This document shows positions 2 through 50,981 of a stretch of 64,000 nucleotides of DNA, one piece after another; position 1 is the first letter of the stretch, and each line of letters starts with the position of its first letter. Origin of the DNA: a virus. Where the stretch lies: positions 35,857 to 99,856 of the IMG/VR virus record IMGVR_UViG_3300028008_001363; one strand, written 5' to 3'. A model generated the notes under the pieces. That model was not told the DNA's origin and did no database searches. It was given only the letters and a program-made list of their open reading frames with translations. The position numbers and the translations under genes are program-made.

Positions 2-1612
2 GAAGAAGAGTTTGACAGAAAAGTCAAAGAAGTTTTAGAAAGTAGTGCTGACACAGACGAGAAATTAGAATTCATTCATAATGTACTTCAAAACGCAGAT
101 GGTGATGGACACAACGATGAGTTGATGGTAACCAAAGCACAATTCTATGTAGGGCAAATTAAACCTAGAAACGAAGAAGATAAGAAGAAATTATCTTACA
201 TCGCAACAACATTAAGTGCATCGACAGACGAAGATAGTTATTTTGACCAAACGATGGTAGACCAAGCGATGGAATATGTTGAAGATATTATAGAACGCCC
301 AGTGGATGAAAGTGTAAACGAAGCAGATGTTGATTTAAAACCAATAGAAGGAAGTTTTGATTGGGTAAACTCAATGTCAGATGGAACACTTGAAACTCTT
401 AAATCTGCGATGAATAATGATTGGGATATGTTGGATGGTATTAAAGACCTAGCAGACTTTAAAAGAACTATTGATATTTTCTTTACCAACGAAGAAACAC
501 CAGTACCAGAAGATATCGCTAAAATATTTAATAAATTATTAGCAAGGGATGAGAAGGATATTGCTAAATTTAATGAGTTTATACGCCGTGCTTTTATAGA
601 TGCGGGAGAAGAACTTGAAGAACTGGAGACGATGTATGAAACAACTGACCACGAAGTAAGTATGGCTAGAAAAGATGTTAGCAGACTAGCAAAGTATTCT
701 TCAGAGTTAGAACAAATGCTTAGTAATGTTTCTGAAGAAGAAGGCTTACAAGGTTGGGTTCAAGCAAAGATTACTAAAGCGGCTGATTATATCTCAAGTG
801 TAAAACATTACATGGAAGGTGATACTACAGAAGTAAACGAAGCGGTACGAGATAGTTCAGAAGGCTTTGGTGGACAAGCGATAAACTTTATCCATGACTT
901 GTGTATGTTACACGATGGTGTTAAAAGAGACCCAGCAGGATTAAAATATCTTGGAAAATCTGAAATGTGGGATGAAGGCAGTATTCTAAAAGATAAAGGT
1001 AAATTAACTACTCTAATGCTTTGGGTTAAGAAAAACAAAGACGTTGTTGAAAAACGTTTTTCACGTATGTTTGGTACCTATAGCAACAGAGATGAAAATG
1101 GAAAAGTAACAGCATCAGATGGTAATCAAATTCTTAATAACATCATTAAGAAAATCCCCACAGTAAATGAAAACTTCAAAGATGTTACACCTTTTGGTTA
1201 TGGTCCTGATGATTACGATGAGAAAGATGTTGCACCTGAAGACCACGGCGGTGACTTGAAAAAGATGCAAGACACATATAAGCATAATGAAGATAGAAAC
1301 AATCATTCAGAAAACATTCTTATGTTAGCACAAGCATTCGGTGATAGAGGTGAGATTAAAGCAGTTGAAGGTCTTTTAAAGATAATCAAACGTCAAGGTC
1401 ATACGACACCTGAACAATCAGATATGATGTATAAGGCAATTCACAAGAAATATTACAAGCAATTGTTTCCAGAAACAGAAGCAGAAGGTAATGAATTTTC
1501 TGGTGCATTAGCAAAAGCAAAAATTGATGGCAAAAAGACATTTGACGTTGATGGAAAAACTTATAAAGTTAAAGAAGCACTAAGTAAACTAATAGACCAA
1601 CAGAAAATTTAA
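2..1612 (+). CDS. Acidic modular protein, putative internal head (virion core) polyprotein; 5'-truncated by window edge
   Basis: Frame is open from nt 2 to the TAA at 1612, so the gene starts left of the window. Repeated [ILV]xE-type junctions (VDE-S, VNE-A x2, MYE-T, VNE-N, VKE-A) separate short modules and resemble T4 gp21 protease sites. Confidence 0.55.
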   Translation, partial: EEEFDRKVKEVLESSADTDEKLEFIHNVLQNADGDGHNDELMVTKAQFYVGQIKPRNEEDKKKLSYIATTLSASTDEDSYFDQTMVDQAMEYVEDIIERPVDESVNEADVDLKPIEGSFDWVNSMSDGTLETLKSAMNNDWDMLDGIKDLADFKRTIDIFFTNEETPVPEDIAKIFNKLLARDEKDIAKFNEFIRRAFIDAGEELEELETMYETTDHEVSMARKDVSRLAKYSSELEQMLSNVSEEEGLQGWVQAKITKAADYISSVKHYMEGDTTEVNEAVRDSSEGFGGQAINFIHDLCMLHDGVKRDPAGLKYLGKSEMWDEGSILKDKGKLTTLMLWVKKNKDVVEKRFSRMFGTYSNRDENGKVTASDGNQILNNIIKKIPTVNENFKDVTPFGYGPDDYDEKDVAPEDHGGDLKKMQDTYKHNEDRNNHSENILMLAQAFGDRGEIKAVEGLLKIIKRQGHTTPEQSDMMYKAIHKKYYKQLFPETEAEGNEFSGALAKAKIDGKKTFDVDGKTYKVKEALSKLIDQQKI

Positions 1613-1616
1613 TATA

Positions 1617-2483
1617 ATGAACTTATTTGAATTGACACAATCTAAAGCCGCACAATCAGAAGTTATTTCTGAGGGTGGTTCTATGCCAGGTGTCGGTGCT
1701 ATTCATATTGATGAAATCAATCCAACACTTATTCCATTAGAGAAAGAGTTAGGTATCGATTTAAGAAACAATGCATTAGGTAGTGTTGGTAAAAGAGAAT
1801 TCAGTGGCGACATTGATGTTGCATTAAAGATTGATGCAGACAAGATACCAGAATTCGTAGAAAGACTTAAAAAAAGTAGCCAAATAATGGACATTGCAAA
1901 GTCAAGTGTGATTATGACAAAGGTTAAAATCATGGACTTTGATAAGACTAAAGAAGATGGTAGACCAAGAACTGGATATGTTCAAGTAGATTTCATGCCA
2001 GGTGACCCAGATTGGTTAAAGACTTATTATCATTCACCAAATGAAAAAGATAGTCAGTACAAAGGTGTTTATCGTAATCTAATGATTGCCTCAATTGCTG
2101 GTAATTTAGATATAGAAAACAGTGAAGAAACAATTGATGACGGTAGACCACTTCAATCAAAAAGATTTATGTTTAGTCCGAGAGATGGACTAGTAAGAGT
2201 TTTGCGTAGACCAGTTCCAAAAGCATCAGGCAATGGATACACTAAGAAGAACAATAATAAAATTATCGATGGTCCGTGGAAGACAGCAGACTCGATTGCA
2301 AAGAATTTAAAACTAGATAATGGCGAAGACCTATATAGTTATGAGACATTAGTTACTGCAATTAAGAAGAACTTACCACCTGAAGACCAAAAGAATATAT
2401 TCACAGCATTTACTAATAACAATACGATAAAAGACATGGGCATCCCACCAGATATCCAAGAGTATGCAAAGGGTGAATTATAA
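1617..2483 (+). CDS. Nucleotidyltransferase-fold protein (Pol-beta superfamily) with capsid-targeting-like N-terminus
   Basis: LGSVGKREFSGDIDVAL fits the hGS...DxD motif; third acidic strand is VQVDFM; N-terminus MNLFEL...VISE-GG. Confidence 0.7.
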   Translation: MNLFELTQSKAAQSEVISEGGSMPGVGAIHIDEINPTLIPLEKELGIDLRNNALGSVGKREFSGDIDVALKIDADKIPEFVERLKKSSQIMDIAKSSVIMTKVKIMDFDKTKEDGRPRTGYVQVDFMPGDPDWLKTYYHSPNEKDSQYKGVYRNLMIASIAGNLDIENSEETIDDGRPLQSKRFMFSPRDGLVRVLRRPVPKASGNGYTKKNNNKIIDGPWKTADSIAKNLKLDNGEDLYSYETLVTAIKKNLPPEDQKNIFTAFTNNNTIKDMGIPPDIQEYAKGEL

Positions 2484-3694
2484 TGAGACTAGATGAATTA
2501 GATAAGAAAATCACACAGTCTGACTTGGATGCATTAGAAGTATTCGCTGATAGAATATTTGGCAAAGTTGGTATTGATGTAGAATTTACACGTCACTTCT
2601 TAGACAGAGTAAACGATGACCGTAACGGTGAGCAAATTACTGGTAGTGAACTAACACGTCTATTCAAACAAGAATACAAACGTTGGGGTAAGCCAATCGC
2701 ACAGATGGGTCCAGATGCTGAAGCAGTAATGAAAGATTTACAGACAGATATCAATATGCCATTTGCATTAAGATGGGATAGAGATAACAATGAATTAGAT
2801 TTGATTGTTAAAACTGTTATGCGTAAGAAAGACTTTAAAACATCTAACAAAGAATTCCCAGTAGAATCAATAGAAGAAAGTCCTTCAGTAATGTCATCAC
2901 AACAAATGTTGACAAAACTATCAAAAGAAATGCAAGGCACACATACGGGCGCAATGAACCCAAACTCTGATTGGTCAAAGTTTGTTCTATCTCATAAAGG
3001 ATTTACACTTAAAGATGTACAAGTTGACCAGATACCAACAGCCGTTAACAATGACGGAATGAGTCAGGCTAATATTGAAAAATATAAACAAGCAGATTTA
3101 TCAAAATTCCCACCTATGGTAATAGGCAACGACGGATATATATTAGATGGTAATCATAGACTTCAAGCATATAAGGCACAGGGCATTAAAACAGTCAAAG
3201 CCTACATAGGCGAAGAATCTGAGATTTGGCAGTGGAACAAAGAAGACCCTAATAATCCTGAAGTATACATTCAAGGATATGGCAGACTTATGCTTAATCA
3301 AATAGAAGACAGTATAGTTGGCAAACTTAAAGAACTTACTAAGATGGCAGAACGAGGCGACTTTGAACAAATACAAAGTCTATTAGATAGAGATGTTTTA
3401 CAATTAATGATGAAATCAGTCGTTGATACAAAAGCAGAACTACAATCAACTCGTAAAAGAGGTGGACCAAAATCTCGTGGTATTAATAAAGAATCTATAT
3501 TTGATGCATTAGAAGATGATATGGCAGAAAAGTTCGATGCCGTAAAAAAGAGTGTAACAGAGTATGGTGTGGGTAAAGTCGTACCAGGAATTAATACTAC
3601 TGTTGATGTTGGACCTAACGAAATTAAGAAACAAGCCGCTAAGTTCGGTAATAAAGTCAGTAAAGACGGGTTACCTAAGAAAAATTTACGATAA
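2483..3694 (+). CDS. Modular protein with ParB/Srx-like domain; putative processed head protein
   Basis: FPPMVI...YILDGNHRLQA is the ParB/Srx signature; N-terminus MRLDE; junctions PVE-S, IEE-S, IGE-E, VTE-Y. TAATG coupling to the upstream gene. Confidence 0.6.
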   Translation: MRLDELDKKITQSDLDALEVFADRIFGKVGIDVEFTRHFLDRVNDDRNGEQITGSELTRLFKQEYKRWGKPIAQMGPDAEAVMKDLQTDINMPFALRWDRDNNELDLIVKTVMRKKDFKTSNKEFPVESIEESPSVMSSQQMLTKLSKEMQGTHTGAMNPNSDWSKFVLSHKGFTLKDVQVDQIPTAVNNDGMSQANIEKYKQADLSKFPPMVIGNDGYILDGNHRLQAYKAQGIKTVKAYIGEESEIWQWNKEDPNNPEVYIQGYGRLMLNQIEDSIVGKLKELTKMAERGDFEQIQSLLDRDVLQLMMKSVVDTKAELQSTRKRGGPKSRGINKESIFDALEDDMAEKFDAVKKSVTEYGVGKVVPGINTTVDVGPNEIKKQAAKFGNKVSKDGLPKKNLR

Positions 3695-3705
3695 AAGGCT
3701 CACAA

Positions 3706-4935
3706 GTGTATAACAAAGATACCATGTGTTATAAAACTTGGAATGATATTATCATATCGTTACCCAAGAAAACAGTTAGTTGGTGTTGTAAGACAAACTT
3801 AACTGAACAACAAACAAAAGAAACTACATTTGATTTAGATATCTTAAACAATAAAGGTATAGATTTTCTTTTCAATCATCCAATTCTTCAAAAGAGAAAA
3901 AAAGAACTAGCAACTGGTATAAGATGTGCAGATTGTCACGTATGTTGGGAATCAGAAGATAGGTCTGGAGAAAGTCATAGAACATTATATACTAATCATT
4001 CTGTTGAATTTGATTATGATACGCCTGCTACCTTTATTGAACTTGAACTGACAAACAAGTGTAATTTAGCCTGTGTATACTGTGGACCACAACTTAGTTC
4101 GAGGTGGCAAAAAGAATTAAAACAACGACATCCTGATACTGAAGATGAAATATTTCATAAAGTAATGGATTTACTGGCTGAGTATTTCAATACCAAACTA
4201 ACAAATAAACCATATATCAATATCAGTCTATTAGGTGGTGAGCCTTTCTTTACTGACCACATGTATGTATTCCTAGAATACCTTTCAAAATTCCATGTAA
4301 AATCTGAACAAGAAGTAACAGTTACAATCACAACTGGCATGGCTTTTCCTGAAAAGAAATTTACGAAATTTATTGAGTTAATTGAACGTACTCCTAACAT
4401 AATATATATTATGCAGTTATCTGGAGAAGCAATTGATAAGAGAGCAGAACTAATTCGATGGGGTCTAAACTTTGAAACGTGGGACAATAACTTAGATATG
4501 TTCTTAACAGAGTCAGCAAGATTGAAGAATTTAGTTATAGGATTTGGTTGTGCCCATAATGCCTTATCTCTGCCGTATTTCAAAGACTTTCTTGTATACA
4601 TTAATAAAAAACTGGCAAAACATGAATACAAATCTGTTGTGTGGTTTTTAATCAACTATATAGAAGACCCACAGCACTTATCCATATCAATGCTAAATAA
4701 TTATCATGCAGATGCTGTAACAGAGCAGATAGAATATATGGAGAATGAAATGACCAATCTTTATAAGAAAGATGAGTATATTACTATGCTGAGGTCACTC
4801 AGAAATCAAATTTTGAATGCGAATGTCACTACAGAGATGAAGCAAAATGCTTCAGATGAATTTAAAAGATTAGAAAATAGACGAAATATATCATTCAAAT
4901 CTGAATTCCCGCACTTCGATGAACTAGTTAAATGA
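3706..4935 (+). CDS. Radical SAM protein with N-terminal Cys-rich (twitch-like) domain
   Basis: CNLACVYC (CxxxCxxC), LLGGEPF, N-terminal C..WCC..CADCHVC; GTG start. Confidence 0.9.
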   Translation: MYNKDTMCYKTWNDIIISLPKKTVSWCCKTNLTEQQTKETTFDLDILNNKGIDFLFNHPILQKRKKELATGIRCADCHVCWESEDRSGESHRTLYTNHSVEFDYDTPATFIELELTNKCNLACVYCGPQLSSRWQKELKQRHPDTEDEIFHKVMDLLAEYFNTKLTNKPYINISLLGGEPFFTDHMYVFLEYLSKFHVKSEQEVTVTITTGMAFPEKKFTKFIELIERTPNIIYIMQLSGEAIDKRAELIRWGLNFETWDNNLDMFLTESARLKNLVIGFGCAHNALSLPYFKDFLVYINKKLAKHEYKSVVWFLINYIEDPQHLSISMLNNYHADAVTEQIEYMENEMTNLYKKDEYITMLRSLRNQILNANVTTEMKQNASDEFKRLENRRNISFKSEFPHFDELVK

Positions 4936-4942
4936 CAATTTA

Positions 4943-4950
4943 GATAAATA
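4943..4950 (+). promoter_or_regulatory. T4-late-like promoter box GATAAATA
   Basis: Variant of T4 TATAAATA, 5 nt before ATG 4956; the same box recurs before several other genes. Confidence 0.6.
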
Positions 4951-4955
4951 CTATT

Positions 4956-5159
4956 ATGAAAATATATGAAGTTATAGGCGAAACAACAGCAGGTGCAATC
5001 GCAACTGTGGCATCTCCATTAGGTGGCGGTGACCCTTCGGCTAGTGTATATAGTAAAAAGAAAAAGAGCAAGAAAAAGAAGGCTAAGATGGGATATAGTG
5101 CTGATGTAGGCAATTTATCATACAAGCATCCAGTCAAAACTCCAATGATTAAAAGGTAG
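4956..5159 (+). CDS. Small basic protein, putative internal head protein
   Basis: MKIYEVIGE N-terminus resembles the T4 capsid-targeting sequence MKTYQEFIAE; Lys-rich centre; late box upstream. Confidence 0.55.
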   Translation: MKIYEVIGETTAGAIATVASPLGGGDPSASVYSKKKKSKKKKAKMGYSADVGNLSYKHPVKTPMIKR

Positions 5160-5166
5160 AAGACTT

Positions 5167-7488
5167 ATGAAATTGACACAAATGATAGAACAAAAAGAAC
5201 GTCCTTACGTGGTCTTTCACGCTAAAAAAGGCAAATATGAAACTCATGCAGTATCATCTTATGATGCGGCAAAGAATGCGGCTAAACATTGGAAATTAAA
5301 ATCAACTGCTGGTGTTACACCAATGTTAGCGGATGTAGAACACGTTGCTGAAAAGTCAGATAAGAACTGTGGTTGTGGTCAAGACCCATGTGTAACATAC
5401 GGTAATAAGTCACATCAAGCAGAATCTTATGACGACTATCATGGTGATATGTCTAAAGAAGAATATGACAAAACAGTAAAAGGTTCTGAAATGGAATATT
5501 CTGTTTGGGTTGGCGGTACTGAAGTCAGTGATAATTATTTACCATATGACGAAGCAGTCAGATTATACGACAAATATAAAGCACAAGGCTATGATGATGT
5601 TCAGTTAGATGCTCGTATTAAAGAATCTGTAAATGAAGCAGAAAAGCGTTGGAAACAAACTAGTATGTCGCCAGCAGAAGCAGAAAAAGAATACGGTAAA
5701 GAAAACGTAAAAGTTAAAAAAGGTGCATTGCGTAATGGCGATGACATGGTAGAAGTATTTGTTGAATCATATTCTCCAGGTGATGAGTACGCTGATTCAG
5801 AAGGCATGGTAAGTAATTGCTGTGGTGCTCCTATGATGGACTATAACGATGGACATGGTAGATGTGGTGATTGTAAAGAAATGGCAGCCGGTGAATCTGA
5901 AGAAGAATTTTACGAAAGTTATAGTAACGATGGAAAAACAGTTACTATATCAGATTACCAACCTGAAGGCGAAGCAAACGCACATAAGAAATTTAACTTG
6001 AGAAAGCAGATACACAGAGGCGAAGATGGCAAACTAATCAAATCGCCTTATGGTGGATATAAAGTTTCATTTCATGGTAGTGCAGAAGACGTAAAAGCAT
6101 ATGCTGAAAAGAACTTAGGTGAAGCATCTAAGAAACAAAAACCTTTCTATGACAAGCCACTTAAAGAAGAAGATGCAGAAGCAATTGCGGCTAGAGATGA
6201 ATTCTTAAAAGTTATGGATATGAAACCAAAGAGTAGCAATAAAGCAATTGATACAATTAAAAAGATTGTAGCAGACAAACAAAATATGCAAGTCAAATTT
6301 GACGATGGCAAGATGAAAGTAGATTTATATACAGCATCAGCCGTTGTGGCAGTATACAATGCTGTAAACGATGCTAACAAAGAAAAAATTGATAATATGC
6401 TAAGAACTAAAGAAGGCATGCTTAGAATGTCAAACTTTGCATTTAGCAAACTTAAAGAAGGTATTGCAGAAGGCAAACGTATTGATGAGATTTTACCATT
6501 AGTTGGTGCGATAGCAGGCGCTATCGGTAGAAAAGTTGCTGGTGCGGCAGTTAAAAACGTTGCTAAAAAGGCAGCCGGTGCGGCAGCAATGGGTTCAGCA
6601 AATGCGGCTGGTAGTGCTATTGGTAATGCGGCACAAAGTTCAGGTATGAATGCTTCAGCAAAAGCAAAAGGCAAAAAACTTAATGCAGTTAAAGAAGCAG
6701 GCGGATATTATACACAACCAGTATACGACATGATTAAACAACATGGTTATCCAAAAGTAATGCATAGATTACTATCTGCCTTAGATGCAGATGTAATACA
6801 GGATTTTATAAACCGTGAGCCAGACTTAAATGAAACAGTAAATGAAGCCGACATATTAGGCGATAATTATGCGAATGTATATTATGATTACAGTGAAAGT
6901 TTTTATATGATTGATGTATATAAAGATGGCAAAAAGGTAGAAGAATATGATGATTACATTGGCGCAAATGAAGAAGGTGACCCAATCAAAGATAAGTTCT
7001 TAGAACTTGTTAAGAAAGCCGGTTTAGAACCAGAAGGACTTAATCTTATATCAACAGGTGGCGATGAACCTGATGAATACGGTGTATTTAAGAATGGTAA
7101 ATTCAACTGGGATAAGAATGAGGCATTACCTGCAGTAGGAACAGCAGTTGCTGGTGGTCTTAAGAAGGCCGCAGGTGCAGTTGGAAAATTAGCAAACAAG
7201 GCAGATACAGCGGCATTTGGTCTCAAAGCCAAATCAGGCGTTAAGTACAATGCAAATAGTCCACAAGGCAAAATGATTAGAAACATGGCTAAAAATGGCA
7301 AAACTCAAGGTGCTAGAAGCGATGCAAAGAAGGACCTAGTTAAAGGTACAGTTGCTGACTTGAAAAAGAAAGTCGGTGGTATTGGCGGTATTATGAAAAC
7401 TGCGGCAGGTTCATCTGGTTTCTTACCAGCATCCAAACAGTTCGCACAAGACATGATTGAAAAAGCAATCAAGGACGCTGACAAATAA
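5167..7488 (+). CDS. 773-aa modular putative head polyprotein
   Basis: MKLTQMIE N-terminus; more than 12 [ILVF]xE junctions; Cys modules CGCGQDPC and SNCCGAP..CGDC; two Ala/Gly/Lys amphipathic segments. Confidence 0.6.
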   Translation: MKLTQMIEQKERPYVVFHAKKGKYETHAVSSYDAAKNAAKHWKLKSTAGVTPMLADVEHVAEKSDKNCGCGQDPCVTYGNKSHQAESYDDYHGDMSKEEYDKTVKGSEMEYSVWVGGTEVSDNYLPYDEAVRLYDKYKAQGYDDVQLDARIKESVNEAEKRWKQTSMSPAEAEKEYGKENVKVKKGALRNGDDMVEVFVESYSPGDEYADSEGMVSNCCGAPMMDYNDGHGRCGDCKEMAAGESEEEFYESYSNDGKTVTISDYQPEGEANAHKKFNLRKQIHRGEDGKLIKSPYGGYKVSFHGSAEDVKAYAEKNLGEASKKQKPFYDKPLKEEDAEAIAARDEFLKVMDMKPKSSNKAIDTIKKIVADKQNMQVKFDDGKMKVDLYTASAVVAVYNAVNDANKEKIDNMLRTKEGMLRMSNFAFSKLKEGIAEGKRIDEILPLVGAIAGAIGRKVAGAAVKNVAKKAAGAAAMGSANAAGSAIGNAAQSSGMNASAKAKGKKLNAVKEAGGYYTQPVYDMIKQHGYPKVMHRLLSALDADVIQDFINREPDLNETVNEADILGDNYANVYYDYSESFYMIDVYKDGKKVEEYDDYIGANEEGDPIKDKFLELVKKAGLEPEGLNLISTGGDEPDEYGVFKNGKFNWDKNEALPAVGTAVAGGLKKAAGAVGKLANKADTAAFGLKAKSGVKYNANSPQGKMIRNMAKNGKTQGARSDAKKDLVKGTVADLKKKVGGIGGIMKTAAGSSGFLPASKQFAQDMIEKAIKDADK

Positions 7489-7501: not shown

Positions 7502-7530
7502 TTGACTTTGTAAGTCACTTATGTTAATAT
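7502..7530 (+). promoter_or_regulatory. sigma70-type promoter for the DNA polymerase unit
   Basis: TTGACT (7502-7507), 17 nt, TAATAT (7525-7530) with extended TGn. Confidence 0.6.
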
Positions 7531-7532
7531 AT

Positions 7533-7559
7533 AAAGAGTGTGTAAAAGCACTCTTTTTT
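7533..7559 (+). terminator. Putative intrinsic terminator after the head-protein cluster
   Basis: AAAGAGTG / CACTCTTT stem followed by a T run. Confidence 0.55.
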
Positions 7560-7584: not shown

Positions 7585-7845
7585 ATGTCAATTGACGCAA
7601 TTAACGAAGAAGAAAAAGCAAAACTCATTCAATTAGTGAACGAAGGTTGTTTAGTTCTACAAGAATGTGAAGACCTGAAAGGTGGATTACGTGATACTGT
7701 AAGAGCAATTGCTGAAGAAATCGATGTTAAACCATCAGTATTGAACAAAGCAATATCTGTGGCACACAAAGCCAAATTAGCAGAGACTCGTGCCGACTTT
7801 GAAGATATGGAAACTATCCTAGAAACAGTAGGTCGCACTCTTTGA
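7585..7845 (+). CDS. Small helical DNA-binding protein, T4 DsbA / GapR-like
   Basis: 86 aa, helical pattern (EDLKGGLRDTVRAIAEEIDVKPSVLNKAI); AGGAG RBS; family call by resemblance only. Confidence 0.45.
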   Translation: MSIDAINEEEKAKLIQLVNEGCLVLQECEDLKGGLRDTVRAIAEEIDVKPSVLNKAISVAHKAKLAETRADFEDMETILETVGRTL

Positions 7846-10649
7846 GTTATGTAGATGCTTTCTACAACAAAGACAAAGACATTGTTCAAGTTGTAGAACG
7901 AATTAAAGGTAAACGTGTTTACAGTGATTATCCAGCGTGGCGTACTTTCTATGTGAAAGACCCACGTGGTGACCACACAAGTATTCACGGTGATAAAGTT
8001 CGTCAAATCAAATGTAAACGTCTCAAAGACCTCCATAAAGAACGAAAGATAAACGTAGGCAAAACATTTTACGAAAGTGATATGAAGCCTGAAGTTAAGT
8101 GTTTGAGTGAGAACTACAACGGCGTAGAATCACCAAAACTTAATACTGCTTTCTTCGATATTGAGACTGACTTTGATGCGACTAAAGGCTTCGCTGACCC
8201 TAGTGACCCGTTTATGGCAATCACAGCCATTACGGTTCATTTACAATGGCTTGACTTACTTGTCACACTCGTAATCCCACCAAAGGGTATGCGTGAGGGC
8301 GAAGGCTTAGAAGAGGCACAACGCATTTGTTCACAATTCGAAAACACAGAACTATACCTAAGTGAAGCAGATATGCTCAATGACTTCTTAGATGTGATTG
8401 AAGATGCTGATGTGTTGACTGGTTGGAACTCTGAAGGTTATGATATTCCATATACTGTTAATCGAATTACTAGAGTACTGAGTAAGTCACATACACGCAA
8501 GATGTGTTTGTGGGATTTAGTACCTCAGAAACGTAAGATTGTAAAATATGGTAAAGAACAAGAAACATTTGACTTGTTTGGTAGAATTCACCTCGACTAC
8601 TTAGAACTCTATCGTAAGTATACTTACCACGAAATGCATTCATATGCACTTGATACGATTGGTGAACATGAAGTAGGTGAACAAAAAGTTGCATATGATG
8701 GCACACTCGACCAGTTATATAACAATGACTTCTACAAATTCGTAGCCTATAACAGACAAGACGTTGCACTACTTGATAAGATTGATAAGAAACTAAGATT
8801 TATCGAATTAGCAAATGAGATTGCACACGATAATACAGTGAATATCAAAACAACAATGGGTGCTGTTGCTGTTACTGAACAAGCAATCATTAACGAAGCA
8901 CACAGACGAGGCATGGTTGTTCCTGACAGAAAAAGACGTGAATGGTCAGATGATGATGTTGATTTGAGTGATGAAGAATTACATGACTTAGAAATGCAAA
9001 AGGCCGCAGGTGCTTTCGTGGCAGTTCCTAAGAAAGGTTTACAGAAGTGGGTTGCAGGTATTGATATCAACTCTCTTTATCCATCAGTTATTCGTGCAAT
9101 GAATATGTCGCCAGAAACTATCGCTGGACAACTAAGACCAGATTTGACTGAAAAGATGATTGGTGACCGAATTAAAGAAGGCAGAAAAACTGGTGCTAAA
9201 ACATATGGGTCTTCTCAAGCATGGGATGAAACGTTTAGTTCAGAAGAGTTTCGTGTTCTAAATGAGAAAGACAAAGCAAGTAGAGTTACGTTAGTACTAG
9301 AAGATAGTCCATACGAAGACATGAAAACAACTCAAACAGTATCTGGTGCAGAAGCATATGACTTGATATTCAATAGCGGATTGAACTGGACTGTGACTGC
9401 AAATGGCACTATATTCAAACAAGATGTACAAGGTATTGTCCCTAGTTTGTTAGAACGTTGGTATGCAGAACGACAAGTGATGCAACAAAGCAAAAAGAAG
9501 GCTATTGCAGATGGTGATAAAGAACAAATCGCTTACTGGGATAAACGACAGTTAGTTAAAAAGATTAACTTGAACTCTCTGTATGGTGCGTTGTTGAACC
9601 AAGGTTGTCGTTTCTATGATAAGCGTATTGGTCAGAGTACAACACTTACGGGTCGTTGTATTACTCGACATATGGGTGCGAAAACAAATGAAGTTATCGC
9701 AGGTCATTACGACTATAAAGGTCCAGCAGTTATATATGGTGATACAGACTCCATTTACTATTCAATGTATCCCGTGTACCAGCAAGAGATTGATGATGGT
9801 TCTATAGAGTGGACTAAAGACAAGGTCTTAGAGTTATATGACGAAGTAGCAAATCAAGTGAATGCTAGTTTTCCAGACTTTATGAAAACGTTCTTTAATG
9901 TTCCTAGAAAAGAAGGCGAGATTATCGTTGCTGGTCGTGAGAACTGTGCCACACAAGGTATCTTTATTAAGAAGAAACGATATGCAATGCTTATCTATGA
10001 TGATGATGGCGAACGCCGTGATATAGATGGCAAACCAGGAAAGATTAAAGCGATGGGTCTTGACCTTAAACGTTCTGATACTCCTGGTTATATGCAAGAT
10101 TTTCTCAGTGAAGTTCTACTGAAAGTATTGACTGAAGGAACACGTGAAGAAGTCATTAAAATGGTCAAAGAGTTTAAGAAAGAGTTTAGAGCAAAGCCAG
10201 GTTGGGAAAAAGGTTCTCAATCTCGTGTGAACAATTTGACTTCATATAAGAACCGTGTGAATGCCGCTAAGAAGGCAATGGCTAAAGATATGAATGCGGG
10301 CGGTGATGCATCTAAGAAAGACAAAGTACATCTTCCTGGTCACGTGTCAGCCGCATTGAACTGGAATATGTTACGTGAACTTAACCAAGACAAGTATGCA
10401 GTAGAGATTGTAGATGGTATGAAGTGTATCATTTGTAAACTAAAACCAAATACGTTCAAGTTAAAGAGTGTGGCATATCCAATTGATGCTACAAAGATAC
10501 CACAATGGTTTCAGGATTTGCCATTCGACCACGAGTTAATGGAACAAACGATTGTTGATAAGAAGTTAGACAACTTGATTGGTGTTTTGAATTGGGATAT
10601 GAGTGATGCAAATGCATCCGAAACTTTTGACAACTTGTTTGATTTATAA
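7842..10649 (+). CDS. Family B DNA polymerase (T4 gp43-like) with 3'-5' exonuclease
   Basis: Exo motifs FDIET, GWNSEGYDIPY, YNRQD; pol motifs DINSLYPS, KINLNSLYG, YGDTDS; C-terminal TFDNLFDL clamp-binding-like tail; TTG start. Confidence 0.97.
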   Translation: MSYVDAFYNKDKDIVQVVERIKGKRVYSDYPAWRTFYVKDPRGDHTSIHGDKVRQIKCKRLKDLHKERKINVGKTFYESDMKPEVKCLSENYNGVESPKLNTAFFDIETDFDATKGFADPSDPFMAITAITVHLQWLDLLVTLVIPPKGMREGEGLEEAQRICSQFENTELYLSEADMLNDFLDVIEDADVLTGWNSEGYDIPYTVNRITRVLSKSHTRKMCLWDLVPQKRKIVKYGKEQETFDLFGRIHLDYLELYRKYTYHEMHSYALDTIGEHEVGEQKVAYDGTLDQLYNNDFYKFVAYNRQDVALLDKIDKKLRFIELANEIAHDNTVNIKTTMGAVAVTEQAIINEAHRRGMVVPDRKRREWSDDDVDLSDEELHDLEMQKAAGAFVAVPKKGLQKWVAGIDINSLYPSVIRAMNMSPETIAGQLRPDLTEKMIGDRIKEGRKTGAKTYGSSQAWDETFSSEEFRVLNEKDKASRVTLVLEDSPYEDMKTTQTVSGAEAYDLIFNSGLNWTVTANGTIFKQDVQGIVPSLLERWYAERQVMQQSKKKAIADGDKEQIAYWDKRQLVKKINLNSLYGALLNQGCRFYDKRIGQSTTLTGRCITRHMGAKTNEVIAGHYDYKGPAVIYGDTDSIYYSMYPVYQQEIDDGSIEWTKDKVLELYDEVANQVNASFPDFMKTFFNVPRKEGEIIVAGRENCATQGIFIKKKRYAMLIYDDDGERRDIDGKPGKIKAMGLDLKRSDTPGYMQDFLSEVLLKVLTEGTREEVIKMVKEFKKEFRAKPGWEKGSQSRVNNLTSYKNRVNAAKKAMAKDMNAGGDASKKDKVHLPGHVSAALNWNMLRELNQDKYAVEIVDGMKCIICKLKPNTFKLKSVAYPIDATKIPQWFQDLPFDHELMEQTIVDKKLDNLIGVLNWDMSDANASETFDNLFDL

Positions 10650-17606: not shown

Positions 17607-18299
17607 ATGATTGGAATATTTGGTGATAGTTTTGCATATGAAGGTCATGGCTCACATGTAAATGTAGGATGGCCCACATATCTTTCTGATTTATATAACG
17701 AAGAAAATCAGAACTTTTCAATCTCAGGTTCATCAATTCCTTACAGTTATCAATTACTTTGTGAGAAAGACTTAAGTATATACTCAAAAGTTATATTCAT
17801 TGCTACAGAACCACGTAGACTCCACTTTGTAGATAAAAAAACTAATAAAGAAATGTTATGGAATGGTCGTGATGTACCTGGTTCAATAATATGTAATTCA
17901 GTCGATACTTATTCTTCATATGACACATCTTACGATGGAGTAGCCCTAAGATACCAAGAATACATAACGGCAATGTATCCTGATAGTTGGAAGTGGATGG
18001 CTAAAGCAATGAGAAATGATGTTGTTCGTAAACACGAAAATTTATTATTATTAGATATATTCGAACTATCATTTATAAGTAACTTGGGCGCACCAGATAG
18101 GCCATGGCATATTGATTGGACAGAAGACAATAATATTAGAAGTTGTCATATGACAAAATTACAGAATAGAGAACTTGCAGGATATATTAAAGATTACTTT
18201 GATAATGGATTTGATATACATAATACATTAAAGTCTGATACTGTAAAAGAATACTATACTGAACCTTTGCACCATGAATCGGGATTTGTAAAAAAATGA
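17607..18299 (+). CDS. SGNH/GDSL-like hydrolase (paralog 2)
   Basis: MIGIFGDSF, late CHM; shares YQE.ITA.YPD.W and IKDYFDNG.DIHN with paralog 1. Confidence 0.6.
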   Translation: MIGIFGDSFAYEGHGSHVNVGWPTYLSDLYNEENQNFSISGSSIPYSYQLLCEKDLSIYSKVIFIATEPRRLHFVDKKTNKEMLWNGRDVPGSIICNSVDTYSSYDTSYDGVALRYQEYITAMYPDSWKWMAKAMRNDVVRKHENLLLLDIFELSFISNLGAPDRPWHIDWTEDNNIRSCHMTKLQNRELAGYIKDYFDNGFDIHNTLKSDTVKEYYTEPLHHESGFVKK

Positions 18300-41683: not shown

Positions 41684-42892
41684 TTAATATATTCCTCGTT
41701 TTGTTAGTTTTACATTTAAGTTGGAGCACCTCGTTGTGCATACCTTTAGTTTTGGATTGTTTTCATCGTCATAACCATTAGAGAAACTTTCCTCTAAATC
41801 TTTTGTAAAGAAGTCATGGCTTATTATATCACGGAATGAATGAGAATGCAAGTTATTCCAGCCCTCATTGTACTTTTTAGTGAATCTTAACCAATTTTCT
41901 CTACCACCAGCATCATATTGTGTCTTGTATTGATAGTTAGAGTTCATCCAACAACATCTCCATACAGAACCATCATGTGAAATCTGGTATCTATTATTCG
42001 TACCCCATAGACAAGTGATACCTGTTTGTTCTCTTGCTATCTCTAGGTTCGCTTCGGCACTAAGTTTAGTATCAACTTTTATATCTTTGATAACACTTCT
42101 TGCTTTCTTCAGATTCTTTTCAACTAAATCATCACTGATATTCATCAAGTCTTCGTCTTCTTCTTTCATCTTATCAAGTTCATTCAACTTCTCACTCAAA
42201 GCAATCTTAACTGCCTTTTGTTCTACACGTTGAATTCTATTTCTTTGAAATTTGTCAAATCCATGTTCTGCCGCCAGCATCTTTGCTGTTTCCACAAGTT
42301 CTTCATTGAAATCGAATGGAATCATTTTCCATACTGCACAACCACCGCCACTGATAAATGCTTCTGCATTTTTAATTATCTTATCAAAGTCAGTGCCAAT
42401 TCTGTACATATTTTGTGTTTCATTATCTGTTCCATCTAAGTCAAACATTACGTGATGTCTTCCTGGTAGATGTTCGTGTAGTATTTCACCTAGTTTCTTC
42501 CAAAAGGCTGGTGACTTGTATGAACCATTTGTTGAAATAGTCATATCATGTAATCCATTAAAATTAGCATGTAAGTTACCATTTCCATCACCAACATAGT
42601 CATCAGTCGGAATATCGCCTTTTGTTGTTTTGGCCGCATACTCTACCAGTTCTAAGAAGTCAGGATGAAAGGGACTATCACCAAAACTTCCATCGTAAGT
42701 TAGATACTTAACTTCATCTTTTATCGAATCAATAAGTTGATGATGAATATCTACTGGCAAGTTCCAGTTCTTTGGTGGTGCTGAAACTTCGTCTGTATCA
42801 GGATTAAATACTTTATGTCTGATACAACCAGGACACTTTGCTTGACAGTTAGAGGTAACCTCTATCGTTATTTCCATATTCCTTCTATTCAT
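41684..42892 (-). CDS. Radical SAM / SPASM protein
   Basis: EVTSNCQAKCPGC, GSFGDS, STNGS, C..VWRCCW..CTTRC; the true start may be MEITIE at 42877. Confidence 0.9.
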   Translation of the reverse strand: MNRRNMEITIEVTSNCQAKCPGCIRHKVFNPDTDEVSAPPKNWNLPVDIHHQLIDSIKDEVKYLTYDGSFGDSPFHPDFLELVEYAAKTTKGDIPTDDYVGDGNGNLHANFNGLHDMTISTNGSYKSPAFWKKLGEILHEHLPGRHHVMFDLDGTDNETQNMYRIGTDFDKIIKNAEAFISGGGCAVWKMIPFDFNEELVETAKMLAAEHGFDKFQRNRIQRVEQKAVKIALSEKLNELDKMKEEDEDLMNISDDLVEKNLKKARSVIKDIKVDTKLSAEANLEIAREQTGITCLWGTNNRYQISHDGSVWRCCWMNSNYQYKTQYDAGGRENWLRFTKKYNEGWNNLHSHSFRDIISHDFFTKDLEESFSNGYDDENNPKLKVCTTRCSNLNVKLTKRGIY

Positions 42893-44054
42893 TTATATAA
42901 TCCCATACTTTAGGTGCTAATGTCTTACATGACACATCATATAATTCATCTTGTAATCGAACCAGTTCTTTAAACTTTGGCTCTTCTAATGTTCTATTGC
43001 CTTTTAATCTTTTGGCAAACTCTGCTGTAAAATCATTTACAACTAATTCTTCTAGTATCTTATCTTTCACATCTTCTTCCAAGTTAACAATGTCCATAGC
43101 CTGTGGCCAATGCACAAATGTAGTTCTTATATTTACTTTTTTTGTAGGTATCAACTTCTTAATGTCTAAGAAGTCGTTATATATTTCATTCATATAGAAC
43201 GCATGGTATGCCGATGTAGTACAAACAAATAAGAAGTTATGAACTAGTGGTGCAACTTCAACAATGTTCTTCAGCACAGTCTGATAGTCGCCATCTGTCC
43301 TAAAGTAGTTAAATAAGTCTCCTGTGCCGTCTAATGATACAGTTACACTAACTCTTTTGAAGTGTGGCCACAATGTTTTAACTGTCCACCCTTTGTACTC
43401 AAGTATACTCATATTACTATTGTAAACAAGAGATATCTTTTTTGTATCAATTCTTGGGTCATCAATCATTCGTTGTAATGTCTTATACATATCTCTAGTA
43501 TAGAATGGTTCACCGCCAGAGAACTCAATATTCTCTACAGTTGGCAATACATTATCAAACAAATCATCCATCACTCTGTCATCTGGAATATCTATTTTAT
43601 TTGTAGGTGGTGATATGTGACTGAAGTTAAAATCTTTCTTTAACTTTAATTCTATTGTAGGATTATCTTTGCCAGTCTGTTCAAACCTAGAGTTCGATGA
43701 CGTGTCACAATGCCTACATTTATAGTTACATGCTCGTGTCATCTTTAACTGCAAGTCTTTTATATGAATAGTATCTGACTCATAATCTGGGTCAGTATGT
43801 ATTGTATTCTCTAGTGACCTAGTTCTGTATGAAGATAGTCCTGACTCCTCTTGTATCTGGCAATCAATACATCCAGCAGGCCACTCATCGTTACGCAACT
43901 GCTGTCTAACTTTAACAAAGTCGGCGTTGTTAATCACTTGTGATGGCAGTTTATCTATATCAGATTCTACAAAATCATTTCTTTTGAATCTGAAACAAGG
44001 AGCAAATCCACCAGACTTCAAATCTAAATGCGACCATGCGTACTTACATTTCAT
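42885..44054 (-). CDS. Radical SAM protein, N-terminal twitch type
   Basis: CKYAW, APC, CIDC, CNYKCRHC, SGGEPF. Confidence 0.92.
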   Translation of the reverse strand: MKCKYAWSHLDLKSGGFAPCFRFKRNDFVESDIDKLPSQVINNADFVKVRQQLRNDEWPAGCIDCQIQEESGLSSYRTRSLENTIHTDPDYESDTIHIKDLQLKMTRACNYKCRHCDTSSNSRFEQTGKDNPTIELKLKKDFNFSHISPPTNKIDIPDDRVMDDLFDNVLPTVENIEFSGGEPFYTRDMYKTLQRMIDDPRIDTKKISLVYNSNMSILEYKGWTVKTLWPHFKRVSVTVSLDGTGDLFNYFRTDGDYQTVLKNIVEVAPLVHNFLFVCTTSAYHAFYMNEIYNDFLDIKKLIPTKKVNIRTTFVHWPQAMDIVNLEEDVKDKILEELVVNDFTAEFAKRLKGNRTLEEPKFKELVRLQDELYDVSCKTLAPKVWDYINE

Positions 44055-45343
44055 CGGAGTTCTCCTGCTTCGTGTCTCTGTTGTATATATTTAAGTGAGA
44101 AACCTGGTTCTTTCATCATCTTATCTACTTCGGCATATCCCTCTAATTCAGTACATAATTTATAAAGAATATCTTTTTCTTTCAATGCTTGTACTAAATC
44201 AGGATTATAATCTCCTATATTAGAATCATAATATTCTGTATCTAATAGATGAGTTTTCTTCAAAAATAGATACCACGCATATTCTTTTTCTTCTGTGGGT
44301 TTTCTATTTCTTTCTAATATCTTCTTTGCTCTATCAATTCTTACTTGAGCGGCTGGTTCACGTTCTTTACTATCCCACTCATCTAATATCCATTGTTCAT
44401 ACCAATCTGGTCCAAAGTGTGGACAATATTCTCCTGTCTCTACCATCTTAAACGAACATGACCACGTAGGATGATTCTTAGCAAAATAGTCCATATCATC
44501 TGCAAAGCCATTTAAGTTTAACGTGCTGTAGGTAGAATGTATGTGACCTCTTTCTATGTTCTTTAATTGTGATAGATATTCTTCATAGATTTCTATTGAT
44601 TCTTCCCAACCTGGCGAACCCCATCGTTGATATTCATTGTAAGCATTACAACCATCTATTGAACCTGTCAGTATGATTTTTCTGAAACGATTAAGTTTCT
44701 CAACCATTACATCATCTAATCTCTTTGTTGTGTTTGTGATTATTTCTAGTAAAACATTTTCTACTTTACATTTCTCAATCAACCAATCAATAAGTTTTGG
44801 AAAGTTTGGTGAGAAGAAAGGTTCTCCACCTAGTATCTTAATCTTCTCCAGATGTTGCCAATCTACGTTTAATTCTTTTAGATACTCAATTCTTTTCTTT
44901 GGTATTTTAGTTGGCTGTCTGCCTCTCATACCTTTTTCGTTTAAAAGAAAGTCATCTCTATAGTATAACTGACTTGAGAATAAAGAGTCACACATTTTAC
45001 ATTGCAGGTTACAAAGATTATCTAAACTCAACTCTATTGAACGTAATCTATCAAAGTCTTCAGTTAGAGTTACATTTTCTAACTTGAAGTGTACGTTGTT
45101 GGCAGCCCATCGCATCGACTCATTGCCTTCTGCGTAACATAAAGAACATTCTTTAGTCTTCACACCATTTAACATATTCTTTCTTAGCCAAAGATACTTG
45201 TCATTAAATGGTTTTGTTGCGTCTTCTTCTATGTGGTCTTCATCGTTTCCTACTGTAAACCTACAACATGGTCGGGCAACATTCTTCATAGAAACTGCCA
45301 TATGATTCCATGCTAACATACATACTACGCCGTTATCTTTCAT
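44051..45343 (-). CDS. Radical SAM protein, N-terminal twitch type
   Basis: CMLAW, RPCC, CSLC, CNLQCKMC, LGGEPF. Confidence 0.92.
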   Translation of the reverse strand: MKDNGVVCMLAWNHMAVSMKNVARPCCRFTVGNDEDHIEEDATKPFNDKYLWLRKNMLNGVKTKECSLCYAEGNESMRWAANNVHFKLENVTLTEDFDRLRSIELSLDNLCNLQCKMCDSLFSSQLYYRDDFLLNEKGMRGRQPTKIPKKRIEYLKELNVDWQHLEKIKILGGEPFFSPNFPKLIDWLIEKCKVENVLLEIITNTTKRLDDVMVEKLNRFRKIILTGSIDGCNAYNEYQRWGSPGWEESIEIYEEYLSQLKNIERGHIHSTYSTLNLNGFADDMDYFAKNHPTWSCSFKMVETGEYCPHFGPDWYEQWILDEWDSKEREPAAQVRIDRAKKILERNRKPTEEKEYAWYLFLKKTHLLDTEYYDSNIGDYNPDLVQALKEKDILYKLCTELEGYAEVDKMMKEPGFSLKYIQQRHEAGELR

Positions 45344-46527
45344 TACATCATCGCCTTAAATCTTGCATCTAAATCTAAAATATTTTCATCTCTGTATCCA
45401 TCATACCTATTTTGAATCTCTATAAATTCTTTACTTCCAGTATACTCTGTAGTTTCAAGTATATTTATAAGAGTGTCAACTGCAACATATACGTTTCTGT
45501 CATCGGACATACCTAAAGCCACAATAGAGTTAGGTTTATAATTATCTATCCAATTTTTAAGAAAATCTATTGATTTTTGTTTTAACTCTGGTGGTATACA
45601 AGAGACTGCCATGCCTTTTGGCCACCAAACTTGGTTAGGGTCAATCCTTACTTTCGCATTAATCAACTCGTCCCACCATTTATCTATTGTTACTAAATTT
45701 ATGGCAGTACATGTCATCTGAATTGATACATCACAACCTTCATGGGCTTCACTTGCTGACCTATATTTTTCTATGTTATTCTTAATCACATTCCATTTGA
45801 TGTTACTTTTTCTTTGAAATTCTTGTGTTTCACCAGTGCCATCTATTGATAATACAATCTGCAAGCCTGCTCCATCACAAAATCTCATTAAAGTATCAAA
45901 CCATTTCTTTGATGCATTAGTGCCATTTGTTGTTACTACACATCTAATTTTTGGATAATTATCAGCAATATGGTTCATAAACTTTCTTACTCCTAAATCA
46001 ATAGAAGGTTCTCCACCTAGAATAGATATCTCTTCGCAGTCACTTAAGTCTAAGTCATAAACATCATTTGTGTCTATGTGTAGTATAAAATCTTTTCCTG
46101 TATGCTTAATAGCCTCTTCTTCAAGCAAGGATGACGATGATGGTCCACACATTCTACACATCATATTACATTTATTACCCGCTCTGTAATCAAGTCTCAC
46201 AATTTTAGTTATTCCATCTGGTGAATTACAATTGGCGTCAGGACAAACTTCTTCTCCACCGCAGTGTGATTGCAAATCGTATTGTTCGTAAAATGTTCTT
46301 CTGGAATCCTTACCTAAACTCTCATTATGTATGCATTCTCTACAAAATATAGATTCCTTATCATCGTACATTCTTTTTTTGAAGTCACGCAGATAGTCAG
46401 ACTTTTCATATTCTTTTACGGTGCCTTCGAAAGTCTCACCTTTCCATTCACAGCATGGTCTACATCCTTGTGTACCTTCATAATATAGACCCAACCAAGG
46501 GGCGTTACAGTAAGGTTTATCTCTCAT
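45343..46527 (-). CDS. Radical SAM protein, N-terminal twitch type
   Basis: YCNAPW, RPCC, CREC, CNMMCRMC, LGGEPS. Confidence 0.92.
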   Translation of the reverse strand: MRDKPYCNAPWLGLYYEGTQGCRPCCEWKGETFEGTVKEYEKSDYLRDFKKRMYDDKESIFCRECIHNESLGKDSRRTFYEQYDLQSHCGGEEVCPDANCNSPDGITKIVRLDYRAGNKCNMMCRMCGPSSSSLLEEEAIKHTGKDFILHIDTNDVYDLDLSDCEEISILGGEPSIDLGVRKFMNHIADNYPKIRCVVTTNGTNASKKWFDTLMRFCDGAGLQIVLSIDGTGETQEFQRKSNIKWNVIKNNIEKYRSASEAHEGCDVSIQMTCTAINLVTIDKWWDELINAKVRIDPNQVWWPKGMAVSCIPPELKQKSIDFLKNWIDNYKPNSIVALGMSDDRNVYVAVDTLINILETTEYTGSKEFIEIQNRYDGYRDENILDLDARFKAMM

Positions 46528-46530
46528 CTA

Positions 46531-47895: not shown

Positions 47896-47904
47896 AATAT
47901 ATCC

Positions 47905-49214: not shown

Positions 49215-49215
49215 T

Positions 49216-50751: not shown

Positions 50752-50944
50752 CTTTACCTTGTTCTTCAAAGTCTTTTTTCATCCATACCAGATTATTAAT
50801 ATCGCCTCTTGTTAAGCCAATATCTCTTAAGTCTCTGTTTGATAATCTGTTTAGATGCTTAATAGTGTCCCGATGCATTTGCCATGTCATCAGATATTTC
50901 CAGTATCTATACGGAAGTGTATAGATTCGTTTAAATAGTGTCAT
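50744..50944 (-). CDS. DUF1127 / YjiS-like small protein
   Basis: RDTIKHLNRLSNRDLRDIGLTRGDI fits the R..L..L.D..L.DIG..R.DI pattern; start MTLFKR after AAGGAG. Confidence 0.8.
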   Translation of the reverse strand: MTLFKRIYTLPYRYWKYLMTWQMHRDTIKHLNRLSNRDLRDIGLTRGDINNLVWMKKDFEEQGKDD

Positions 50945-50981
50945 AATATTTTTGTTTCTCCTTCTTATTATCAACAATCAG

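Follow-up and report, generated by a model that had tools for sequence, protein, structure and literature searches.

A gene unit near the start of a stretch of viral DNA raises the question of how one encoded chain can range from 547 to 1287 amino acids (aa) among relatives beside neighbours that are nearly invariant in size. The stretch (the window, 64,000 nucleotides) comprises bases 35857-99856 of a 99,856-base viral contig from IMG/VR (IMGVR_UViG_3300028008_001363), which has a CheckV completeness of 26%, implying a genome of several hundred kb. The unit consists of open reading frames (ORFs) in the order 809-aa, 288-aa, 403-aa, radical S-adenosylmethionine (SAM) enzyme, 67-aa and 773-aa, and is followed by genes for a DsbA-like regulator (dsbA) and a gp43-type DNA polymerase (gp43). 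Four genes (288-aa, 67-68-aa, dsbA and gp43) keep a constant size across six syntenic loci, whereas the chain between the 67-aa gene and dsbA shows the range given above and the protein beginning MRLDELDK varies from 403 to 834 aa. A reading of the DNA letters alone, made earlier without database searches (the sequence-only reading), had proposed that these genes are strings of small effectors, packaged as one chain, cut apart by a prohead protease during head maturation and injected with the DNA. We find this interpretation partly supported: the architecture, the sites, the leaders and the presence of the protease in the lineage hold, but it was over-generalised to every gene. We think it likely that the unit (809-aa ORF through 773-aa ORF) serves this phage as a head-cargo locus expressed late, and its long modular proteins most likely each enter the head as a single chain before being cut into many small cargo proteins.

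Judged by its genes, the phage is an uncultured giant marine T4-like phage. This placement rests on the DsbA-like regulator, the gp43-type polymerase and the nearest cultured relatives at the protein level, which are Kyanoviridae (e.g., Methylophilales phage Melnitz and Prochlorococcus phage P-SSM7).

The N-termini named in the sequence-only reading (MNLFEL, MRLDEL, MKIYEVIGE and MKLTQMIE) are present in the ORF translations, as are all of the hydrophobic-x-Glu (h-x-E) sites that it listed for the 773-aa ORF. The h-x-E sites of this ORF are VAE62, IKE153, VNE157, FVE200, FYE250, LGE319, LKE334, LKE431, IAE435, IDE441, VKE510, LNE556 and VNE560. The map of the ORF is as follows; pLDDT is the predicted local distance difference test of the structure model described below, and P0001 and P0003 are two of the homologous proteins.

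5167-7488, plus strand: the complete 773-aa ORF, with leader MKLTQMIE.
5167-5190, plus strand: leader MKLTQMIE, aa 1-8; 22 homology break points at E8.
5191-5352, plus strand: module A, aa 9-62, ending VAE; a confident small domain that is internal in many other proteins.
5353-5424, plus strand: Cys-knuckle module, aa 63-86, CGCGQDPC; common to P-SSM7 gp193.
5425-5625, plus strand: module B, aa 87-153, SYDDY...ARIKE; a confident domain.
5626-5637, plus strand: spacer SVNE, aa 154-157, between two Glu sites; pLDDT <50; insertion point in P0001 and P0003.
5638-5766, plus strand: module C, aa 158-200, AEKRWKQTSMSP...VFVE; Glu ends 25 of its 27 distinct upstream contexts.
5767-6123, plus strand: modules D (aa 201-250, Cys-rich, ending FYE) and E (aa 251-319, ending LGE); low model confidence.
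6124-6171, plus strand: short basic spacer, aa 320-335, ending LKE-E; P0003 has SMNE instead.
6172-6459, plus strand: module F, aa 336-431, ending LKE; a confident helical/beta domain common to Melnitz gp30.
6460-6696, plus strand: Ala/Gly/Lys-rich low-complexity segment, aa 432-510, ending VKE.
6697-6846, plus strand: module G, aa 511-556, AGGYYTQP...DLNE, then spacer TVNE, aa 557-560.
6847-7122, plus strand: module H, aa 561-652, ending KNE; a confident beta-rich domain.
7123-7488, plus strand: basic Ala/Gly/Lys-rich C-terminal tail, aa 653-773, plus the stop codon.

A HMMER search with the 773-aa protein returned 880 representative clusters at E<=1e-3, and the 150 listed matches were analysed. 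Among those listed, relatives match the protein piecewise (at about residues 1-67, 83-156, 153-207, 197-252, 330-475, 505-557 and 556-656), and the matching pieces sit at every possible position and in varied order in proteins of 59-1261 aa. Searched separately, as the sequence-only reading had advised, the modules were found singly, duplicated and reordered in other phages. BLAST break points cluster at residues 8, 62, 152-157, 200-201, 250-251, 334, 429-431, 505-510, 550-560 and 651-652. Enrichment of h-x-E sites at module boundaries had been predicted, and 41% of the 357 internal break points indeed fall within 3 aa of an h-x-E bond, compared with 15% of random positions (p<2e-4) and 23% of random Glu residues (p=4e-4). 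The h-x-E sites that lie inside modules (593, 613 and 765) draw none or two break points.

Seven modules were then modelled separately and the residues preceding them in other proteins were collected, giving 129 non-redundant upstream contexts made up of other modules, spacers or N-terminal leaders. The residue before the junction (P1) was Glu in 114 of the 129 (background 8.8%), so that module boundaries from homolog alignments coincide with x-E sites; for module G this was true of 22 out of 22. P3 was L, I, V, M, F, Y or T in 89 of these 114 contexts (background 30%) and P1' was A, S or G in 98 (background 22.5%). A recombination signal at the DNA level was considered and rejected as the source of the pattern. 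At the junctions conservation is confined to the Glu codon, with P2 and P3 variable, so the constraint acts on the protein and not on a DNA joint. The motif E[ST]VNEA or TEVNEA has four occurrences in the 100-kb contig, all of them in the 809-aa ORF or the 773-aa ORF.

Modules are gained and lost at these same sites, as had been proposed. In P0001, which is ~90% identical to the 773-aa protein, an exact 35-aa Cys-knuckle module is extra between ...IKE/SVNE/ and /AEKRWK (a slash marks the bond after Glu). P0003 has two modules at the SVNE insertion point and SMNE in place of the 15-aa spacer; it lacks module A, and its leader stands directly before module B. Taken together, these comparisons show a modular architecture with selection for a gp21-type site at each joint and after the leader, and with turnover exactly at the sites. 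In cultured cyanophages, the difference between P-SSM7 gp193 (L002:3971-4642) and S-SM1 gp192 (L062:5589-6077) is a block of 33 aa whose first residue directly follows ...KVDE, which suggests that module insertions and deletions at Glu sites may also occur there.

To place the sites on a structure, we modelled the 773-aa protein with AlphaFold2 from an 85-row alignment. Compact domains were predicted with confidence at residues 10-55, 100-152, 160-200, 360-435 and 560-650, corresponding to modules A, B, C, F and H (block means about 85-98), whereas pLDDT was below 50 at 58-94, 154-159, 551-558 and 649-662, the regions that contain the sites. Some low-complexity fragments of the tail were misaligned by MAFFT, and for this reason modelled residues 653-773 are not trustworthy. 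The model shows the x-E sites in predicted linkers, where they would be exposed. Foldseek found no fold match to the model in the PDB at E<=1e-3. Neither Pfam nor PHROGs matched the 773-, 67- and 288-aa ORFs or the C-terminal region of the 809-aa protein, no sequence relatives were found in the PDB, the matches in the ESM Atlas were unnamed viral clusters only, and blastn against cultured phages returned no match. A scan of 185,579 genomes of bacteria and archaea yielded no relative, which suggests that the modules are confined to phages.

The leader of the 773-aa protein belongs to a type that recurs in the unit. A strict 8-mer leader pattern was found in 3 of 133 contig genes, all of them in this unit. 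A T4-type leader is a propeptide of 8-19 aa with hydrophobic residues at intervals and L/I-x-E at its end; MKLTQMIE, MNLKDILE and MKIYEVIGE fit it, and MNLFELTQ and MRLDELDK do so except for the final E. Among homologs starting with M, 37 of 141 have the 8-mer pattern, seven have a T4-like 10-mer (MKTFTEYLKE) and 14 have MGILSD[IT]VNE, or 58 of 141 altogether. The last two types, like MKLTQLTE, MKFKQLIE, MRFTQLIE and MRLGQLAE, are independent of what follows them. For example, the leader MNLSELTE precedes a cytidylyltransferase and the same leader type also precedes different modules. Proteins of the syntenic region of P-SSM7 begin MKKFSAFLTE, MLSFKDLHE, MKTYSQFIEE and MLIDELNE. In the T4 record the N-termini are MAKINELLRE for gp24, MELITELFDE for Alt, MLKEQLIAE for gp22 and MNEPQLLIE for gp21, and gp23 is cut at FLTE/AEIGG. 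The capsid targeting sequence (CTS) of T4 IPIII is MKTYQEFIAE (PMC8442874); within the T4 CTS, targeting depends on residues 4 and 7 and processing on residues 8 and 10 (PMC9026906). The claim that the leaders of this unit are CTS-like stands: they resemble T4 head-targeting propeptides and are common to unrelated cargo. A 282-aa ORF without family match (L003:15262-16110, 2.7-3.6 kb before the window) begins MRKLLDYIKE/S; it is the contig's only other gene with the T4-like 10-mer leader pattern and may encode extra cargo outside the operon.

The T4 prohead protease gp21 needs little beyond L/I-x-E, after which it cleaves (PMC9026906). We looked for an S77 (gp21) prohead protease in the 100-kb contig of the window itself, and this fragment has none. 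Among five long related contigs searched, one (G002) has an S77 protease (PF03420, E=1.4e-26) and also carries a polyprotein homolog; no S77 protease was found in the other four related fragments. The G002 protease aligns with T4 gp21 through the LGE..HP and GVSSRG motifs, and the G002 head module is in T4 order (portal, small core proteins, protease, scaffold, major capsid protein). The G002 capsid protein has VME/S, VLE/N and LSE/S where T4 gp23 has its LTE/A cut. These matches show that the gp21-type protease family is present, as a predicted gene, in the lineage. Between portal and protease, G002 has two ORFs (L060:8540-9751) that occupy the T4 gp67/gp68 positions and have polyprotein-like leaders: a small ORF that reads MRFNELAQNE from an internal Met, and one for a highly acidic protein of 286 aa that begins MSTRERYIKVIE/S.

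The same chains could instead be uncut, beads-on-a-string multidomain proteins, virion-associated or cytoplasmic, whose shuffling reflects tolerance of their linkers and involves no proteolysis. Glu-rich flexible linkers are known to be common, the AlphaFold model consists of domains and linkers only, and cleavage is inferred rather than demonstrated. The number of sites also counts against cleavage. The junctions had been called dense, but the 773-aa ORF has 15 [ILVF]xE matches where shuffled sequences have 10.5 +/- 2.8 (p=0.08), a density not above chance, and the DNA polymerase used as a control is equally 'enriched' (22 vs 15.6). The above-chance signal is the placement of the h-x-E sites, not their number. 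However, a generic linker would not fix one terminal Glu in 114 of 129 contexts with a hydrophobic P3 and a small P1', and it would not put the same x-E at the end of an 8-10-aa leader common to unrelated proteins. Furthermore, the motif is identical to the cleavage specificity of the protease family that the lineage carries. We consider uncut proteins improbable, and it is difficult to see why Glu would be selected at every joint if the chains never met such a protease.

Packaging of chains that are then cut, the reading we prefer, can be compared with virion data from relatives. Mass spectrometry of purified S-SM1 virions (Sullivan et al. 2010) recorded 25 counts for the T4-GC190 putative cytidylyltransferase, 12 for GC1453, 10 for GC1454, seven for GC1455 and eight for gp21. 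GC190 corresponds to SSM1_190 (MKKFSAFLNE), GC1453 to SSM1_188, GC1454 to SSM1_191 (MNLNELPD), whose long Ala/Gly/Lys-rich stretches recall the tails of the 773-aa protein, and GC1455 to SSM1_192 (MLSFKELQE), and all four GC proteins are encoded in one block. GC1455 is homologous to P-SSM7 gp193, and gp193 and the 773-aa protein have the CGCGQ[DN]PC knuckle module in common (43% over 46 aa, pairwise E=7e-13, database E=3e-4). S-CREM2 virions also hold a cytidylyltransferase, and its authors suggested encapsidation. Together with the PA5oct protein described below, these mass spectrometry results show that relatives are virion-associated, so that the presence in virions expected by the sequence-only reading holds for relatives.

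T4-GC119 (S-SM1 gp115) was not used as a cultured analogue, as the S-SM1 member is without a clear leader or junction pattern. S-SM1 gp115 (L063:6537-8024) is a virion-detected, very basic, low-complexity protein encoded between gp16 and gp17. Among 15 cyanophages, the T4-GC119 gene is 276-2985 nt long and only its C-terminal DUF6321 domain is conserved. The P-SSM7 member begins MKTYSQFIEE, which is nearly the T4 CTS.

Packaged and cut chains could also be sacrificial, core- or scaffold-like components of the prohead, targeted and cut at x-E, with their pieces mostly expelled or acting as counter-ions and packing material, like T4 gp22, gp67, gp68 and the internal peptides, and with no injected effectors. 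In T4, proteins of the core undergo cleavage at many L/I-x-E sites, after which the fragments are cleared (PMC9026906; PMC5694885), and lysines of T4 internal proteins contact DNA (PMC3012670). The chains contain acidic stretches and long Lys/Ala/Gly-rich segments, and a giant genome demands much charge neutralisation. However, many of the modules are confidently folded, conserved domains of 45-95 aa, the size of T4 IPI*, and an enzyme domain is carried on the same leader. In addition, the locus lies away from the head module and is hypervariable beside conserved neighbours, which is expected of arms-race cargo and not of architecture. A purely sacrificial role is therefore unlikely in our view.

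The remaining features of the unit and its flanks are as follows.

L003 about 17943-18010: matching terminator and promoter pair that precedes the 809-aa ORF.
2-1612, plus strand: C-terminal 536 aa of the 809-aa protein; its start is 817 nt upstream of the window, with leader MNLKDILE.
1617-2483, plus strand: 288-aa protein with leader MNLFELTQ; a single conserved domain of constant length.
2483-3694, plus strand: 403-aa protein with leader MRLDELDK; conserved N-domain at aa 7-128, ParB-like segment at aa 177-250, variable middle.
3706-4935, plus strand: radical SAM enzyme, without leader and without junctions.
4943-4950, plus strand: box GATAAATA, resembling a late promoter; the 67-aa gene has its ATG 5 nt further on.
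4956-5159, plus strand: conserved small basic protein of 67 aa; leader MKIYEVIGE is followed by an Ala/Gly-rich stretch and a run of Lys.
7502-7556, plus strand: sigma-70-like promoter, then a terminator hairpin, closing the unit before dsbA.
7585-7845: T4 DsbA-like regulator, directly after the 773-aa ORF unit.
7842-10649: family-B DNA polymerase, gp43 type, after the DsbA-like regulator.

The proposal that all of these genes are module strings holds for the 773-aa ORF, for the 809-aa ORF after its enzyme and for the 403-aa ORF with its break points, and fails for the 288-aa single domain and the leaderless radical SAM gene. The first ORF starts as an enzyme of 230 aa, a cytidylyltransferase (domain at aa 10-231, PF01467, phrog_395) right behind the MNLKDILE leader, and only then continues as shuffled modules, with break points at the junctions LTE/G, VNE/A (twice), SSE/G, ETE/A and VKE/A. 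The 403-aa protein has break points at PVE128/S and VTE360/Y, and its N-domain is a stand-alone gene in Melnitz and other T4-like phages. The 67-aa protein is like the T4 internal proteins in size and charge, and its leader is kept as MKI[YH]E[VI][IL]GE in the six syntenic loci.

The alignment of homologs revealed no internal junctions or break points in the 288-aa protein. It has 1176 database relatives, and the 120 that were listed are all >=86% identical and almost all 288 aa long. A Pol-beta-superfamily nucleotidyltransferase-like GS...DID motif, LGSVGKREFSGDIDVAL, was seen by eye, with Pfam silent. We regard the 288-aa protein as a candidate for a packaged enzyme rather than as a polyprotein. 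It has distant homologs in the jumbo phages PA5oct, Atu_ph07 and Phosso and in Lak phages, and the PA5oct homolog, EST35_0231 (gp231), is annotated as a structural protein from electrospray ionisation tandem mass spectrometry (ESI-MS/MS) of virions.

A late box had been noted at 4943. A box is present there, GATAAATA, and it is not the exact T4 late box, TATAAATA, of which the window contains only two copies and none at 4943. ATAAATA, which it contains at 4944, is depleted about two-fold in the window (15 vs 33 expected), and the contig has 27 copies, all of them on the coding strand and most no more than 60 nt ahead of a start codon. Boxes of the form GATAAATAC are located 33 nt before the 809-aa ORF, before the 67-aa gene and 24 nt before the portal gene of G002. 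The depletion, the coding-strand placement and the position before a portal gene make the GATAAATAC-type box a credible candidate for a late-type promoter of the lineage. Several ATAAATA copies are only 4-9 nt from a start codon, and nearly leaderless late transcripts would result. The promoter-plus-hairpin cassettes on both flanks of the unit (7502-7556 and L003:17943-18010) recall the promoter-early stem-loop (PeSL) cassettes that have been described as shuffling joints in T4-type genomes (PMC2839356, PMC4122927).

The radical SAM gene at 3706-4935, which would not be cargo by these features, introduces a further explanation. The chains could be multi-core precursors similar to those of ribosomally synthesised and post-translationally modified peptides (RiPPs), modified by this enzyme or by the contig's twelve radical SAM enzymes and released by a Glu-specific peptidase. 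In most syntenic loci the gene separates the 403-aa gene from the 67-aa gene, Cys-rich knuckles make up several of the modules, and the contig is unusually rich in radical SAM genes. On the other hand, the gene is missing from the syntenic relative L011, which retains the polyproteins, the modules are diverse folded domains of 45-95 aa and not short repeated cores, and the enzyme has no C-terminal Cys cluster when read by eye. At least eight radical SAM ORFs lie at 41684-52101 of the window (minus strand), interspersed with thymidylate synthase and a QueC-like gene, and the enzyme of the unit is a paralog of those in this distant block. We therefore regard RiPP-like precursors as very improbable.

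The simplest account of all the evidence, and in our judgement probably the correct one, is that these are T4-style head cargo chains, which a Glu-specific prohead protease frees of their leader and splits into modules. The amphipathic leader of 8-10 residues, M-[KRN]-[LIF]-x-[QED]-[LI]-x-E, would dock the chain on the prohead scaffolding core, by analogy with the T4 CTS. Behind it would come an enzyme (the cytidylyltransferase), a string of independently folding modules of 25-100 aa, or both, each module ending in [V/M/L/I]-x-E before A, S or G, the specificity of T4 gp21-type (S77) proteases, in exposed linkers that could be cut. The activated protease in the prohead would remove the leader and split the chain into many small products, comprising Zn-knuckle-like, acidic and globular pieces and Lys/Ala/Gly-rich basic peptides. 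These products would stay with the DNA and presumably be delivered into the host as T4 IPI-III and Alt are. Because any module ending in x-E could join any other without loss of function, chains would be free to gain, lose and reorder modules, which would explain the range of lengths beside near-invariant neighbours.

Several points, in addition to the chance-level site density, weigh against this account. The phage's cytidylyltransferase is related to those of S-SM1 and P-SSM7 by Pfam family and weak pairwise similarity only (E=0.003), and for this reason the virion evidence is one of synteny, leader and family, not of orthology. The window contig, 26% complete as stated above, carries neither protease nor capsid gene. 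Some 59% of homolog N-termini fit none of the three leader patterns, although many of these may be fragments or mis-called starts, and the leader of the 403-aa ORF ends in K, not E. The binomial p for Glu at P1 (about 1e-102) overstates independence, as the contexts are related sequences; despite this kinship, the diversity of the contexts makes the Glu pattern unmistakable at the protein level. The ATAAATA at 4944 is only 5 nt from the ATG, and ATAAATA also precedes non-structural genes (Clp ATPase, SbmA), so the box is not proof of head-specific timing. No module has a recognisable function or fold by Pfam, PHROG, PDB or Foldseek. Leader targeting, cleavage at the sites, retention and injection of the products, and the roles of the products are what we infer. 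Since the specificity of gp21 is loose, any exposed h-x-E linker inside the prohead would be cut, and the main uncertainty therefore concerns packaging.

The closest known principle is that of T4 IPI, IPII and IPIII. Shared features are a short amphipathic N-terminal leader ending in h-x-E, cargo that is small and in many cases basic, a gene content that is hypervariable from one related phage to the next, a lineage with a gp21-type protease, and genes outside the head module. Unlike the T4 internal proteins, many units are here joined in one frame (up to about 11 in 773 aa, and chains of up to 1287 aa in relatives), each with its own site, the common leader is of 8 and not 10 residues, and processing and packaging are predicted. 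No homology to T4 IPI, IPII, IPIII or Alt was detected by Pfam, PHROG or PDB sequence searches, and tblastn gave no T-even match. T4 Alt, a packaged ADP-ribosyltransferase that is cut by gp21 at both ends, likewise places an enzyme behind a leader (MELITELFDE, compared with MNLKDILE here) with gp21-type sites downstream. It is not a homolog of the 809-aa protein, in which the enzyme has a cytidylyltransferase fold and is followed by about 570 aa of shuffled modules. The head, inner-body and ejection proteins of phiKZ, 201phi2-1 and SPN3US are also from giant phages, in which a diverged S77 protease cuts after Glu at a three-residue motif, with several sites per substrate and conserved N-termini among paralogous cargo. 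In those phages, however, the motifs are S/A/G-x-E, the propeptides are long (about 100 aa or more) and the substrates are paralog families rather than shuffled mini-modules, and the lineage described here is T4-like (DsbA, gp43, gp20-23 order), not phiKZ-like. GC190, GC1454 and GC1455 of S-SM1 are alike in being syntenic and in their CTS-like leaders, cytidylyltransferase, Ala/Gly/Lys-rich stretches, Cys knuckle and presence in virions. They differ in having one or two units per gene, and they resemble the window proteins only in single modules and in Pfam family. With viral polyproteins and eukaryotic prohormones the analogy is purely functional: one product is cut by a dedicated protease at short sites into several, but sequence, protease class and biology differ, and cutting here would take place inside a closed capsid precursor.

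Full-text literature searches found no published description of concatenated, shuffled capsid-cargo chains. The cyanophage proteomics papers give the relatives only as 'structural' or 'virion-associated' and never read them as CTS cargo or protease substrates. What is known is the T4 principle of CTS and internal proteins, with cargo that is not homologous; what is new here is the concatenation of many units per gene and their combinatorial shuffling. We tentatively put forward a broader proposal, which is a real possibility although less secure than the cargo-chain account itself, that an abundant giant marine T4-like clade uses a combinatorial cargo system, present in simpler form in cyanophages and methylophages. 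The prohead protease would free dozens of shuffled mini-proteins as a phage-specific cocktail of injected effectors and DNA-packing peptides, and its site would double as a universal in-frame joint, allowing near cost-free exchange.

If true, this would extend T4 capsid targeting from one protein with one leader to a polyprotein format, and the head cargo of very abundant ocean phages would be large, modular and fast-evolving. The extreme length variation at an otherwise conserved locus would be accounted for. Hundreds of 'hypothetical' marine viral proteins could be split at [V/M/L/I]-x-E/[A/S/G], each module becoming a candidate effector, anti-defence protein or DNA-condensing peptide, and the natural leaders and linkers could serve for loading several foreign proteins into phage heads.

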